This document shows, one piece after another, positions 11,757 through 57,310 of a DNA stretch of 64,000 bases. The first letter of the stretch is position 1, and each line of letters starts with the position of its first letter. A program made the position numbers and the translations under genes. This stretch comes from Gemmatimonas sp. (GTDB lineage: Bacteria; Gemmatimonadota; Gemmatimonadetes; Gemmatimonadales; Gemmatimonadaceae): positions 1,632,001 through 1,696,000 of the forward strand of contig OZ257156.1 in the NCBI GenBank assembly GCA_965279375.1, in the 5' to 3' direction. The notes under the pieces were generated by a model. It did not search any database and had not been told where the DNA came from. It worked only from the letters and a program-made list of their open reading frames with translations.

Positions 11757-11952
11757 GGATTGGCTCGGGTGCGAGGTCGTGGATAGGAAGTGATGAACTG
11801 CCTTGCCACGGATAAGAGCAGAAACGCGCGGAAAAAGCTCGCGGATACTACGAAAACAACAATTGTTGTTCGCAGTATCCGCGAGCTTTTGTCTGTTTCT
11901 ATCAGTTCGTATCCGTGGCAGGGCAGTTCATCCCTGGTATCCGAACCAATCC
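11757..11952. repeat. Nested palindromic element, copy 1 (orphan, between convergent genes)
   Basis: Arms GATGAACTGCCTTGCCACGGATA (11792-11814) / TATCCGTGGCAGGGCAGTTCATC (11910-11932); inner arms AAAAGCTCGCGGATACT / AGTATCCGCGAGCTTTT; central palindrome AACAACAATTGTTGTT. Confidence 0.92.
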
Positions 11953-23949: not shown

Positions 23950-24122
23950 GGTGGGGATAGCAGCAGATGAACTGCCCTGCCACGGATAGGAGCCGATAGA
24001 AACGGAAGAAGCTCACGGATACTACGAAAACAACAATTGTTGTTTGCAGTATCCGCGAGCTTTTTTCCGTGTGAATCCGTTGGTATCCGTGGCAGGGCCG
24101 TTCATCCGTTCGTATCCGCCCC
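23950..24122. repeat. Nested palindromic element, copy 2 (orphan, between argD and the PaiB-like gene)
   Basis: Arms GATGAACTGCCCTGCCACGGATA (23966-23988) / TATCCGTGGCAGGGCCGTTCATC (24084-24106); central AAACAACAATTGTTGTTT (24028-24045). Confidence 0.92.
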
Positions 24123-32949: not shown

Positions 32950-33264
32950 ATGTCCGGCACCGGCATCATTCAACTGTACGTGTTCATTCTGGCCGGCTTT
33001 GTCGGCTTCCTGCTCATCTCCAAAGTGCCGCCGCTGCTGCACACGCCGCTCATGGCCGCGACCAACGCGATCAGCGGCATCTCGCTTGTCGGCAGCATCG
33101 TGCTCGCCGGCGGACAGTACGGCACCGTCGCAACGATTCTTGGCGTCGTCGCGGTGGCCTGCGCGATGACCAACGTGGTGGGTGGATTCATCATCACCGA
33201 TCGCATGCTCAACATGTTCAAGCGCACGGAAAAGCCAGCCGAGAAGAAGGAAGGGGCGGCGTGA
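32950..33264 (+). CDS. pntA: NAD(P) transhydrogenase subunit alpha, part 2 (membrane)
   Basis: VPPLLHTPLMAATNAISG, NVVGGF..TDRML.MF. Confidence 0.95.
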   Translation: MSGTGIIQLYVFILAGFVGFLLISKVPPLLHTPLMAATNAISGISLVGSIVLAGGQYGTVATILGVVAVACAMTNVVGGFIITDRMLNMFKRTEKPAEKKEGAA

Positions 33265-34742
33265 GCATGCTGTCGATGCTTCCCGGAGTGCTGCCGCTGT
33301 TGAGCGCGGCCAGCGAAAGCGCTGGCGGCACCAGCGAAACGCGAGAGCTGATCATTCAGGTCACCTATCTCGCCGCGTCGGTGATGTTCATCCTTGGGCT
33401 TCGCAGCCTGACCAAGCCCGACGAAGCGCGCCGCGGCATGCAGCTGGCCGCCGTCGGCATGCTGCTCGCGATCATCGGCACGATGCTCCATCAGGAGATC
33501 CTCACCTACACGTGGATCCTGACGGGCCTGGTCATCGGCTCGGTGATTGGCTACCCGCTCGGCAAGTTCGTGCCGATGACCGCGATGCCGCAGCGTATCG
33601 CCTTCTCGCACATGTTCGGCGCGCTGGCGGCTACGCTCGTCGGTATCGGCGAGTTCTATCACATGTACCAGGCGGGCACGCCCGCTCCGGCTGATGCCGA
33701 CGTGCGCTTCAAGATGGCGGCACTTGGTTTCGAAGTGCTGTTCGGCGCGCTGACGGTGTCGGGCAGCTTCATGGCGTTCGGAAAGCTGCAGGAGTTCATC
33801 ACCGGTCGTCCGGTGACGTACAAGGGACAGAACATCGTCACGGCGCTCGTCTTCATGATCGCACTCGGCGCGTTCTTCATGCTGATCGTGCAGCCGTCGA
33901 ACGTGTACGCGTTCTATACGATGGTCGCGGTGTCGTTCATCATCGGCTTCCTGTTCGTGCTGCCGATCGGTGGCGCAGACATGCCGGTTGTCGTATCGCT
34001 GCTCAATTCCTTTGCCGGTCTCGCCGCATCGGCCACGGGCTTCGCGATCGGCAACAATGTGCTCATCATCGCCGGTGCGCTCGACGGTGCCTCCGGCTTC
34101 ATTCTGTCGATCATCATGTCGAAGGCGATGAATCGCTCCTTCGGCAACGTGCTCTTCGGTGCGTTCGGCTCTGGCGGCGGTGCCGCCAGCACGCGCACGT
34201 CGGAGGGACTCACGGCCAAGAGCATCTCGGCGGAAGATGCGGCCGTATTGCTGGCCTATGCGGGCAAGGTCATCGTGGTGCCGGGTTACGGCATGGCCGT
34301 CGCGCAGGCGCAGCATCAGGTGCGCGAGTTGGCCGAGCTGATCGAGAAGAAGGGCGGCGAAGTGAAGTACGCCATTCATCCAGTGGCCGGTCGCATGCCT
34401 GGCCATATGAACGTGCTGCTCGCCGAGGCCAACGTGCCGTACGATCGCATGTACGACATGGACGAGATCAACGACCAGTTCCAGGAGTGCGATGTCGCGG
34501 TCGTCATCGGCGCCAACGACGTCGTGAACCCGGCGGCCAAGACGGATCCGGGCAGCCCGATCTACGGCATGCCGATTCTGCGCGTGAACGAGGCGAAGGC
34601 GGTGATCGTGCTCAAGCGTTCAATGAACACAGGCTTCGCCGGCATCGAGAACGATCTCTTCTTCGACGAGAAGACGAGCATGCTCTTCGGTGACGCCAAG
34701 GCGTCGCTCTCCAAGCTGGTCAGCGAGGTGAAGGGGTTGTAG
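33261..34742 (+). CDS. pntB: NAD(P) transhydrogenase subunit beta
   Basis: MTAMPQ, GGADMPVV, KAMNRS, VPGYGMAVAQAQH, HPVAGRMPGHMNV, GANDVVNP. Confidence 0.97.
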   Translation: MSMLSMLPGVLPLLSAASESAGGTSETRELIIQVTYLAASVMFILGLRSLTKPDEARRGMQLAAVGMLLAIIGTMLHQEILTYTWILTGLVIGSVIGYPLGKFVPMTAMPQRIAFSHMFGALAATLVGIGEFYHMYQAGTPAPADADVRFKMAALGFEVLFGALTVSGSFMAFGKLQEFITGRPVTYKGQNIVTALVFMIALGAFFMLIVQPSNVYAFYTMVAVSFIIGFLFVLPIGGADMPVVVSLLNSFAGLAASATGFAIGNNVLIIAGALDGASGFILSIIMSKAMNRSFGNVLFGAFGSGGGAASTRTSEGLTAKSISAEDAAVLLAYAGKVIVVPGYGMAVAQAQHQVRELAELIEKKGGEVKYAIHPVAGRMPGHMNVLLAEANVPYDRMYDMDEINDQFQECDVAVVIGANDVVNPAAKTDPGSPIYGMPILRVNEAKAVIVLKRSMNTGFAGIENDLFFDEKTSMLFGDAKASLSKLVSEVKGL

Positions 34743-34864
34743 TGCGTGCGTTTCGCACGCGCCGCGTCATTCCGATGGCGTGAGCGAGCGAGGTGACGAG
34801 TAGTCTGCAACGAGCCGCCTGCCATCGCAGCGCGGCTCGTTTGTGTGTCAGCAGGGAGTTGACT

Positions 34865-35281
34865 GTGCAGCTCGACGATCTTCGGCTCGCGCATGGCGAA
34901 GTCACGCGCAAGGTCATCGGCGCGTTCTATGACGTGTACAACGTACTTGGCTTCGGATTTGTCGAATCCGTGTACGGGAGCGCGATGGCCATCGCGCTGT
35001 CGAAACGAGGAGTGCAGTTCGAACGGGAACGACTGCTGGCCGTTCGCTATGGGGACGTGCTGGTTGGCGAATTCCGTGCGGACCTGATCGTGGAGCGGCG
35101 CGTCATTGTCGAACTCAAGGCCGCCGAGCGAATAGTGCCGGCGCACGAGAGCCAATTGCTCAATTATCTCCGGTCATCGGGCCTGCGAGTAGGTCTCATT
35201 CTCAACTTCGGCGCCAAGGCGACCATGCGTCGGCTCATCTGGACTGGATCTGGGATTGATGTGGCGGATATGAACGGATGA
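34865..35281 (+). CDS. GxxExxY protein (PD-(D/E)XK nuclease superfamily)
   Basis: GFGFVESVY (GxxExxY), FRADLIVE, VELK, QLLNYL, GLILNFG; GTG start after GGGAG; stop codon lies inside palindrome copy 3. Confidence 0.93.
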   Translation: MQLDDLRLAHGEVTRKVIGAFYDVYNVLGFGFVESVYGSAMAIALSKRGVQFERERLLAVRYGDVLVGEFRADLIVERRVIVELKAAERIVPAHESQLLNYLRSSGLRVGLILNFGAKATMRRLIWTGSGIDVADMNG

Positions 35282-35438
35282 ACTGCTCGGCCACGGATAT
35301 GAGCTGATAGAAACGGAAACTGCGCACGGATACTGCCCAAGCAGAGAGATTTCTCTTTTTGTGGTATCCGTGCGCAGTTTCCGTGTGCATCGGTTGGTAT
35401 CCGTGGCCGAGCAGTTCATCCGTTCTTATCCGCGCCAC
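35261..35438. repeat. Nested palindromic element, copy 3 (attached to the GxxExxY gene)
   Basis: GTGGCGGATATGAACGGATGAACTGCTCGGCCACGGATA (35261-35299) / TATCCGTGGCCGAGCAGTTCATCCGTTCTTATCCGCGCCAC (35398-35438); inner arms ACGGAAACTGCGCACGGATAC / GTATCCGTGCGCAGTTTCCGT. Confidence 0.93.
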
Positions 35439-35587
35439 TCGTTCGACGGCTGCAATCGTTGAACGAATTCATCCCTGATGGTGCGGGAACCGACCAAGGG
35501 TGGCGCACGCTGGTCACGCGGATAACTTTCCTTGGCTGCGCCGTCGGCTTGGCGCGGACGTGTTCGTCATCATCTGGAGTGCTGTAG

Positions 35588-36364
35588 ATGCCCGAGTTTG
35601 GAAGCTGGGGAACGGACTGGTGGAAGCCAGTGCTGTTCGTGCTGGTGGCTGGTCACATCACCAACGTGTGTGTGACGCTGTTTCTGCATCGTGCGCAAAC
35701 GCATCGTGGTGTTCGGTTTCACTACCTGGCGGAGTTGCCGATGCGTGTGTGGTTGTGGTTGACCACCGCAACGCGCACCAAGGAATGGGTGGCGTGCCAT
35801 CGCAAGCATCATGCGTTCGCCGATCGCGAGGGCGATCCGCATAGTCCTGTCGTCGAGGGACTGCGCAACATCCTGCTCAAGGGTGCGTTCTACTATCGCA
35901 AGACCGTGCGCCAGCCCGGCGTGCTCGAGAAGTACGGCAAGGGGACGCCCGAGGATTGGCTGGAGCGCCATCTGCTGGACAAGCGGAGCTCATTGGGGAT
36001 CGTGCTCATGCTTGGTATCGACATCTGGCTCTTCGGCTTCTTCGTGGGTCCGCTGGTGTGGGCGGTGCAGATGATCTGGATTCCGCTGTGGGCAGCGGGT
36101 GTGATCAACGGCGTCGGTCATGCGCTGGGCTATCGGAACCACGATGTGAAGGACGCGAGCCGAAACATCTCGCCGTTCGGCATCATCATTGCCGGCGAAG
36201 AGTTGCACAACAATCACCACGCTGATCCGCACTCCGCGAAGTTCGCGCATCGCTGGTTCGAGTTCGACATTGGCTGGATGTACATCCGCCTGCTCTCATT
36301 CCTGGGCTTGGCCGAGGTGAAGTACGCTCGGCTCGGTGCCCATGTTCGCGTCACCGAGTCCTAG
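35588..36364 (+). CDS. Membrane fatty acid desaturase (delta-9 / DesA-like)
   Basis: His boxes HRAQTH, HRKHH, GEELHNNHH; EFDIGW. Confidence 0.93.
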   Translation: MPEFGSWGTDWWKPVLFVLVAGHITNVCVTLFLHRAQTHRGVRFHYLAELPMRVWLWLTTATRTKEWVACHRKHHAFADREGDPHSPVVEGLRNILLKGAFYYRKTVRQPGVLEKYGKGTPEDWLERHLLDKRSSLGIVLMLGIDIWLFGFFVGPLVWAVQMIWIPLWAAGVINGVGHALGYRNHDVKDASRNISPFGIIIAGEELHNNHHADPHSAKFAHRWFEFDIGWMYIRLLSFLGLAEVKYARLGAHVRVTES

Positions 36365-56425: not shown

Positions 56426-57310
56426 TCAGCGGCCCTTCTTCTTGGCCGCCTTCTTGGGAGCGGCCTTCTTCGGGGCGGCCTTCTTGGGTGCTGCCTTTTT
56501 CACCGCCGCCTTCTTCACCGGTGCCGCTTTCTTGGGCGCGGCCTTCTTGGCCGGCGCCGCCTTCTTGGCGGGAGCAGCCTTCTTGGCCGGAGCCGCCTTC
56601 TTTGCCGGCGCGGCCTTCTTGGCCGGAGCCGCCTTCTTTGAAGGTGCGGCCTTCTTTGCCCCCGGTGCAGCCTTCTTGGCGGGAGCCGCCTTTTTCGCTG
56701 GCGCCGCCTTCTTGGCCGGCGGTGCAGCCTTGACCGGCGCGGCCTTCACGGGAGCAGCCTTAGCTGGAGCAGCAGCCTTGGCGGGCGCCTCCTTCTTGGC
56801 GGGCGCGGCCTTCTTGGCGGCAGGCTTGGGCGCAGCAGCAGCCGGTGCTTCGGCAACCACAGGTGCAGCCTTAGGTGCCTTGGGGGCCTTGGGCGGCTTG
56901 GGTGCCGCGACGGGCTTGGGCTCGGGCTCCGCAGGCGCGGCCGGCGGCGCGGGCGCCTCTTCGACCTTGGGCGGCATCACGGCCTTCAGCTTGGGCGCCG
57001 GCTTCTGCGCACCAGGGTTTTTGGGAGGACGGCCGGGGCCGCGACGCACGATCGGACGGCCGAAGAGATCGTCCTCGTCGTCTTCGTCGTCGATGGCCTC
57101 TTCCTCGAAGCCGTCGTCCTCATCGTCATCGTCATCGTCGTCGGTGTCGTCCGCGCTGTCCCACAGGCTGTCGCCGTCGTCAGAGGGGAGGCCGTATCCG
57201 TCCTCCTCGTCGTCTTCGTCGTAAGACGAGCCGCCGTATCCCCCCAGATCATACAGTTCGTCGCGATCCATGAACTGGAGCTCTTCAGACTTCTCGTCAC
57301 CACGCGGCAT
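56426..57310 (-). CDS. Histone H1-like protein: acidic N-terminus, AT-hook, PAKKAA repeats
   Basis: AGGAGGAGG RBS; D/E tract, RRGPGRPPK, many APAKKA repeats. Confidence 0.85.
   Translation of the reverse strand: MPRGDEKSEELQFMDRDELYDLGGYGGSSYDEDDEEDGYGLPSDDGDSLWDSADDTDDDDDDDEDDGFEEEAIDDEDDEDDLFGRPIVRRGPGRPPKNPGAQKPAPKLKAVMPPKVEEAPAPPAAPAEPEPKPVAAPKPPKAPKAPKAAPVVAEAPAAAAPKPAAKKAAPAKKEAPAKAAAPAKAAPVKAAPVKAAPPAKKAAPAKKAAPAKKAAPGAKKAAPSKKAAPAKKAAPAKKAAPAKKAAPAKKAAPAKKAAPKKAAPVKKAAVKKAAPKKAAPKKAAPKKAAKKKGR

Follow-up and report, generated by a model that had tools for sequence, protein, structure and literature searches.

Among the described systems that most resemble the locus reported here are the bacterial miniature inverted-repeat transposable elements (MITEs; Correia, RUP, Nezha) and those 23S rRNA intervening sequences that bear an open reading frame (ORF), in which a four-helix-bundle or S23 ORF lies in a stem. 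The locus itself, a gene of the GxxExxY family ending inside a large palindrome, is located in a window of 64,000 nucleotides from Gemmatimonas sp. (contig OZ257156.1, positions 1,632,001 to 1,696,000 of the forward strand), to which all plain coordinates below refer. The nearest comparison is offered by repetitive extragenic palindromic (REP) sequences and their REP-associated tyrosine transposases (RAYTs). The parts of two studies drawn on here describe a non-jumping single-copy gene together with extragenic doublets for the REPIN-RAYT system (REPIN: REP doublet forming hairpin; 10.1101/2021.07.10.451892), as well as partner genes specific to their repeats and dimers in two orientations, the spacer being conserved in one and variable in the other (PMC3733652). 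The lock step of gene and repeat described below suggests an undescribed enzyme-and-repeat partnership like these known systems. No published description of a link between GxxExxY genes and hairpins was found in the literature searched, mostly without subscription journals and supplements, where one may exist; the same search gave no literature on REP repeats of Gemmatimonas. The gene and the hairpins of the window are:

34865..35281, plus strand: GxxExxY / PDDEXK_3 gene, GTG start, 138 aa (profile matches, alignment, predicted structure)
35261..35438, no strand: gene-adjacent inward hairpin of type 1, with 23-nt cores at 35277-35299 (+) and 35398-35420 (-), 144 nt core to core
11757..11952, no strand: gene-less type-1 hairpin between the convergent genes HD and ispG, with cores at 11792-11814 (+) and 11910-11932 (-), 141 nt core to core
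23950..24122, no strand: gene-less type-1 hairpin between the co-directional genes argD and paiB, with cores at 23966-23988 (+) and 24084-24106 (-), 141 nt core to core

The labels HD, ispG, argD and paiB, as well as the label desaturase used below, are assumed ones, in part taken over from an earlier note on this stretch; that of pntB was confirmed by a family search.

The ORF 34865-35281 contains the GxxExxY motif and matches both PF13366 PDDEXK_3 (E 1.9e-38, 131.9 bits, cut-off 22) and TIGR04256 GxxExxY (E 2.4e-37, 127.8 bits, cut-off 35). Its TGA (35279-35281) lies within the left arm of the palindrome 35261-35438, as the earlier note had read it, and this arm encodes the final six codons and the stop. 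No other PF13366 match was obtained by profile search in the genome holding the window (5.31 Mb, 99.95% complete; coded G000), one of the 87 genomes of the genus compared here under such codes. The palindrome folds with -138 kcal/mol (z = -18.5), a stability reached by none of 200 shuffled sequences. The two gene-less palindromes at 11757-11952 and 23950-24122, already noticed earlier, are indeed homologous to it (72-85% identical), but the count of three copies given at that time holds for the window only. In the whole of G000 the 23-nt arm core occurs 24 times, 12 times per strand, and these arms form 12 two-arm loci, i.e. 7 inward hairpins and 5 outward-facing pairs.

To see how gene and repeat vary together, patterns were built from four types of gene-adjacent hairpins and the arms were counted in all 87 genomes of the genus; reversed-pattern controls gave 0. 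Type 1 is present with 24 arms in G000, 20 in G086, 3 in G025 and 2 in G070 and is absent from 83 of the 87 genomes; G000 and G086 both carry it beside orthologous genes. For type 2 we counted 20 arms in G022, 4 in G000 and 1-2 in four others, for type 3 85 in G105, 58 in G062, 12 in G026 and 1-2 in five others, and for type 4 74 in G107, 9 in G006, 5 in G099 and 1-3 in eight others. Each of the four types has expanded chiefly in genomes with that type next to a GxxExxY gene of their own, gene and repeat varying in lock step. The linkage between palindrome family and GxxExxY genes across genomes, which the earlier note had expected, was seen, but some paralogs are without a palindrome.

Type 2, expanded and gene-adjacent in G022, has no gene beside it in G000, where its four orphan hairpins are located at G000:C1:761330-761540, 831630-831875, 1090700-1091005 and 2272466-2272730. 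Two further variant hairpins of G000 were observed at 3478630-3478820 and 4609270-4609475. In the distant genome G070 an outward type-1 pair (L121, G070:C1:4416300-4416470) resembles the 2183-kb copy of G000, and the gene next to it is 98% identical to the neighbour in G000. Judged from these sequences, gene and repeat are probably shared by the two genomes through horizontal transfer.

A type-1 arm is about 80 nt long and consists of spaced CGGAT-like words with variable filler. The inward copies have a fixed length: 13 of 15 in G000 and G086 measure 140-141 nt core to core, with pairs of them only about 75-90% identical, the remaining two being the gene copy (144 nt) and one copy of 178 nt. 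In the outward pairs 49-105 nt separate the cores. Alignment of the arms revealed a mosaic of sub-blocks shuffled among them. According to the gene calls made in this analysis, 8 of the 12 type-1 loci in G000 lie between convergent and none between divergent genes, and each is preceded by a stop codon. At the ends of some arms short words are expanded in tandem, in a slippage-like manner (G000:C1:3021260-3021310 and 2272660-2272710; L061, L151), and in G086 a 1.1-kb element with a transposase-like frame of 351 codons, putatively IS30-like by its motifs, sits inside a type-1 hairpin, part of which is duplicated (L146:1580-2770, G086:C172). No Rfam match above the gathering score was obtained in 34700-35600, only sub-threshold matches to long hairpins. 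The exact type-1 23-mer is present in 7 stretches in the contigs of 185,579 species genomes, a set from which G000 may be missing, all from one Gemmatimonadales genome, which has the best protein match too; in metagenome contigs it gave 0 matches. Among named relatives, the protein matches records of Gemmatimonadales and Gemmatimonas best.

At fixed gene junctions the repeats turn over. We inspected 30 of 76 loci of HD|ispG, 26 of them with the HD neighbour: 14 of the 26 hold an insert of at least 120 bp (13 clear hairpins, 1 decayed) and 12 a gap of at most 72 bp, and the filled and empty states are patchy on the ispG tree. In 10 of the 12 testable genomes the genome's own gene-adjacent region was among the top 5 of 32 regions for the HD|ispG insert, which, five of the ten coming from one clade, amounts to about five independent lineages. 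The argD|paiB junction is occupied by type 1 in G000 and G086 and by type 2 in G022; in G088 and G107 the junction is empty. A 3121-kb site filled in G000 is empty in G022, G025 and G078, and G086 carries type-1 hairpins at sites where the complete G000 has none. The presence/absence polymorphism between species that had been predicted for such junctions is hence found at HD|ispG, argD|paiB and the 3121-kb site; of the outcomes named beforehand as contrary, neither missing co-occurrence nor fixed sites without polymorphism was seen. Where G000 and G086 hold copies at orthologous sites, the two are 77-81% alike; the between-genome mean is 78%, and the best within-genome pairs reach 87-91%. Since the orthologous-site copies are no closer than the between-genome mean, these values point to replacement or conversion of the hairpins in place.

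Filled and empty sites were aligned for G000 and G086 (three sites) and for G000 and empty relatives (three sites), one of which had alignable flanks, divergence being too great at the others. At this sole cleanly alignable site the target duplication looked for since the earlier note was not found; the hairpin replaces about 8 bp right after a stop codon. Type-1 hairpins resemble bacterial MITEs in being short, non-coding, palindromic and multi-copy, with filled and empty sites, but differ from them in being overwritten in place; sharp terminal inverted repeats were not seen, nor, at the one alignable site, a target duplication. No insertion sequence (IS) transposase matching the type-1 hairpins was identified.

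The surroundings of the gene, needed for a comparison of its own junction, comprise:

34853..34858, plus strand: Shine-Dalgarno-like AGGGAG, six bases 5' of GTG 34865 (sequence)
34809..34841, plus strand: small leader hairpin 5' of the nuclease gene (compensatory changes)
33261..34742, plus strand: pntB, a host gene outside the system, upstream (PF02233, E 9e-182)
35588..36364, plus strand: downstream neighbour with the unconfirmed label 'desaturase', conserved in the genus and used as anchor for the junction comparison

Because of the AGGGAG six bases before it, the start at GTG 34865 is favoured over GTG 34793; the G086 orthologue is likewise preceded by a Shine-Dalgarno-like motif. The downstream ORF has His-rich boxes and gave no Pfam match at E 1e-3.

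According to the earlier note, gene and hairpin form an autonomous transposable unit, the orphan hairpins being its non-autonomous derivatives. In this lineage such an element is not supported by the sequence comparison. The gene is single-copy in G000, and its G086 orthologue (77%) is located at the same pntB junction with the stop within the same arm. Between the two genomes the synonymous divergence (dS) is 1.0 for the nuclease gene compared with 0.59 for pntB and 0.81 for the downstream gene, and the ratio of nonsynonymous to synonymous divergence (dN/dS) is 0.15; with a dS like that of its neighbours and this ratio, the gene fits vertical inheritance under purifying selection. The hairpin is located on one side of the gene only (downstream), and a near-identical gene copy at a second locus was not seen in the genomes searched. 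Thereby the gene, not bounded by terminal repeats and found at the same locus in relatives, also differs from an IS/MITE pair.

Thirty of 49 loci of the downstream anchor gene were inspected. A GxxExxY sequence is present at this desaturase junction in 10 genomes, 9 with the hairpin downstream and one (G015) upstream, and about five junctions, judged by eye, hold a hairpin or its remnant and no gene. Other findings would agree with a mobile unit. In the close relatives G025 and G088 both gene and hairpin are missing from the junction. Further genomes of the genus have up to 9 PF13366 matches each, at several unrelated loci, and in other phyla the arms enclose the gene (see below). In the part of PMC3424549 considered here the function of PF13366 is entered as 'Unknown' and multiple transfers are noted. 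Among the rows listed for 4 of 18 sequencing runs, all of them contigs, no joint skipping hairpin or gene was present, which is uninformative. Taking both sides together, we regard the autonomous unit as improbable.

The AlphaFold model of the 138-aa protein (predicted local distance difference test score, pLDDT, 91.8) has a PD-(D/E)XK fold (restriction-endonuclease-like). E34, D73, E83, K85, Q97 and Y101 are invariant in 66 sequences, so that the nuclease motifs E...D...ExK and Q97xxxY101 are intact. The best fold match in VIA-align was the nuclease domain of BpuSI (3s1s; Z 9.2, root-mean-square deviation 2.5 over 102 residues), followed by other matches such as 3ijm (Z 9.1), Cas4 SSO0001 (4ic1, Z 7.4) and Hjc (1gef, Z 5.9). 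In the part of PMC2475608 used here, RecB-family nucleases are characterised by a helix with QxxxY that follows motif III, and the GxxExxY protein has the fold, the invariant E...D...ExK and the QxxxY in common with this group. By model and motifs it is a predicted nuclease of the RecB type within the PD-(D/E)XK superfamily. None of its solved relatives is close (identities of 11-18% in the ten best rows), and the fold searches gave no pointer to a substrate, neither Hjc nor Cas4 being singled out over other PD-(D/E)XK folds; a common predicted fold does not reveal what is cut.

How does this locus compare with REPIN-RAYT? Like the system outlined in the consulted part of 10.1101/2021.07.10.451892, it combines a single-copy, non-jumping gene, vertically inherited in G000 and G086, with extragenic inverted doublets. 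As in the section of PMC3733652 on dimers, the G000 system has a conserved inward spacer (140-141 nt) and a variable outward one (49-105 nt). The repeat family is specific to the partner gene of each genome (four types; 10 of 12 junction tests, 2 failures), and some relatives have tandem clusters. In contrast to REPIN-RAYT, the partner has a PD-(D/E)XK fold (PF13366), not HUH/Y1, and no Y1/RAYT transposase (PF01797) was matched in the 99.95% complete G000. The arms are CGGAT-like arrays of about 80 nt, not REPs of 20-40 nt tagged GTAG or CGTC, and a conserved terminal GTAG/CGTC tag was not seen in the aligned type-1 arms. There are tens of hairpin copies rather than hundreds, and in relatives the gene is frequently broken or present in several copies, with alleles that differ at one junction, while other phyla have it within the arms. 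By analogy, the nuclease gene appears to behave like a stationary RAYT with a RecB-type PD-(D/E)XK fold in place of HUH; the GxxExxY-hairpin system would thus work like REPIN-RAYT but is not a member, because it has no HUH transposase and no GTAG/CGTC-tagged REP.

The association extends beyond this lineage. The survey covered 166 distinct genes matched over their full length and without stops; short or stop-containing matches and duplicates were left out. Among relatives, a complete hairpin downstream of the gene is the most frequent arrangement, present at 43 of 85 genes compared with 71 of 1218 gene ends of G000 (gaps of at least 100 bp). Outside Gemmatimonadota the gene is enclosed by arms at 51 of 75 loci, compared with 0 of 117 control windows (mostly coding). 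Of the 27 loci with words like CGCAGAG/CACGAAG ('B'), 25 belong to one protein clade (FastTree 0.93), and of the 105 loci with xxGAT words ('A'), 102 lie outside that clade; the labels were given by a coarse rule and are shared among kin. As far as these sequences go, the repeat word follows the protein tree across phyla. The enrichment, the four separate type matches and the covariation of the word across phyla in effect refute the idea that an ordinary MITE- or REP-like repeat landed behind an unrelated nuclease gene by chance. This had some appeal, as the repeat favours gene 3' ends anyway and the stop codon inside the arm is not particular to the nuclease: gene-less copies in relatives also supply the stop of host genes. 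We consider such a coincidence very improbable. In G086 and G025 gene-less arms overlap the final codons or the stop of ordinary host genes (L151, L138, L129, L362).

A direct repeat TGAC-N7-TGAC stands 5' of many GxxExxY genes of the genus, in both clades (e.g. L003, L018, L019, L080-L082). In G000 it also precedes two genes at G000:C1 about 1217300 and 1605080, presumably, by their motif, Uma2-type nucleases. Control by LexA through this repeat was rejected, the motif being absent upstream of G000 lexA and imperfect before the nuclease gene. Elsewhere in the window, units of 15-18 bp form a long array on the minus strand of 56430-57024, and the repeats they encode are rich in Lys, Ala and Pro, like those of histone-like proteins.

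Alternatively it might be that the system acts at the level of RNA, the hairpins serving between convergent genes as stems for transcript ends or RNase III processing, as in the 23S rRNA intervening sequences, and the protein binding or cutting an RNA stem, including that of its own mRNA. The preference for sites between convergent genes, always after a stop codon, would agree with this, as would the high stability of the stem as RNA and the leader hairpin before the gene. The latter is kept at two separate loci of the genus, ahead of related GxxExxY genes; 5 of its 14 pairs show two-sided changes (11 related sequences, picked by eye). In addition, the four-helix-bundle family described below is the protein family of the intervening sequences (PF05635), and the PF05635 gene of G000, bracketed by such hairpins, shares with them a small ORF with long inverted arms. 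Against it, G-U pairs are not in excess over A-C pairs on the sense strand in any of four classes (69/79, 45/53, 21/28 and 43/47), so there is no sign of selection on an RNA stem. The scan of the gene locus found neither a promoter nor a terminator-like site, and an RNA function alone leaves new insertions unexplained. Unlike the intervening sequences, the type-1 locus lies between protein-coding genes and not in rRNA, has its ORF outside the stem and shows no RNA-strand pairing bias, and its orphans are dispersed. A system working on RNA is therefore, in our view, quite improbable.

A more serious rival is that the hairpins spread and are homogenised without GxxExxY catalysis, by host recombination, repair or a shared helper, with GxxExxY and four-helix-bundle genes as passengers or as proteins that bind or regulate the repeats. 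Several observations favour it and weigh against a role of the nuclease. The only four-helix-bundle gene of G000 has a fixed-length hairpin family of its own:

G000:C1:2703444-2704467: four-helix-bundle gene with hairpins on both sides (L331; PF05635 profile match)

This family comprises 25 arms in 13 loci, is found only in G000 among the 87 genomes, and measures 189 nt core to core in 11 copies measured, which are 91% identical. The gene-hairpin layout thus does not need a nuclease cargo. The four-helix-bundle protein is not known to be a nuclease; either such a hairpin family can be held by a protein other than a nuclease, or both families rely on a shared mover. Large families also stand beside broken genes: the gene of G107 lacks its N-terminal third and that of G022 is frameshifted, in genomes with 74 highly uniform and 20 arms, respectively, both of which hold further, more distant homologues. 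Of the 10 genomes with GxxExxY sequence at the desaturase junction, four (G022, G107, G017, G077) have a broken gene there. The paralogs L376 of G086, L027 of G025 and L381 of G062 are without any hairpin, and G099, a genome 76% complete, has 5 type-4 arms and no PF13366 match. The HD|ispG hairpins of G103 and G062 match no own-gene region in the panel. The search patterns derive from gene-adjacent hairpins, and therefore concerted evolution merely including that site would give a similar picture. Finally, the genus-wide association is loose: 17 of the 60 genomes that have a close homologue, and 1 of the 27 that have none, contain at least four generic hairpins (Fisher P 0.009, with a pattern that misses type 3 and kin that are not independent). 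The lone exception, G063, has four more distant homologues.

The mosaic arms and slippage expansions likewise agree with a spread that is independent of the nuclease, and so does the placement of the repeats in G062, where 57 of 59 type-3 arms lie in 1.3 Mb (G062:C1:3058823-4345559), symmetric about dnaA (3.69 Mb) and not about the gene (3.44 Mb). In G000 a distance of at most 50 kb separates 3 of the 11 orphans from the gene (P about 0.001 with a uniform null, about 0.006 with an origin-restricted null), and those near the gene are common to G086 by descent. A local (cis) spreading around the gene was considered and found weak, the near sites being inherited and the clustering confounded with the replication origin. 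Several type-3 arms of G062 are tandem arrays. The type-1 loci of G000 also lean to the origin; its four-helix-bundle family does not.

Such a spread leaves other facts aside: the catalytic residues are invariant in the 66 homologues, protein clade and repeat word go together across phyla, G088 and G078, both without a PF13366 match, have empty junctions (genomes 86-89% complete), and gene ends in general seldom carry such hairpins. On balance we regard it as unlikely, though less so than the other rivals.

Our preferred reading is a RAYT-like partnership built on a different enzyme, in which the protein of a stationary GxxExxY gene recognises and cuts its cognate DNA hairpin, and host repair copies the latter; we see about equal chances of its being right or wrong. 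A vertically inherited GxxExxY gene would stay beside one copy of a hairpin repeat of roughly 180 bp, while gene-less copies populate gene 3' ends, mostly between convergent genes. The protein may recognise the spaced xxGAT words of the cognate hairpin as DNA, in the form of an extruded cruciform or of a single-stranded hairpin during replication, and would nick or cut it. Host recombination or repair may then copy the hairpin into new gene ends and overwrite older copies, which would account for the mosaic arms, the ragged ends and the missing target duplication. Over long times gene and hairpin would occasionally be swapped, lost or re-sited together. More tentatively, and with somewhat more doubt than confidence, this could hold for the family at large. 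GxxExxY proteins would then be sequence- and structure-specific nucleases that replicate and re-edit their cognate hairpins in trans, and the REPIN/RAYT way of life would have arisen a second time, on unrelated chemistry. The two clades would read two words across many phyla, and four-helix-bundle genes would run parallel families, perhaps borrowing the same nuclease.

For GxxExxY, a very widespread family without an assigned function, the locus offers a concrete candidate substrate. Four natural gene/hairpin types in one genus and two repeat words across phyla form a ready specificity matrix, with the parallel four-helix-bundle family in the same complete genome as a built-in control. Should the link prove catalytic, a nuclease of 138 aa specific for hairpins could serve as a tool, and persistent repeat populations kept by a stationary gene would have evolved more than once, with different chemistry.
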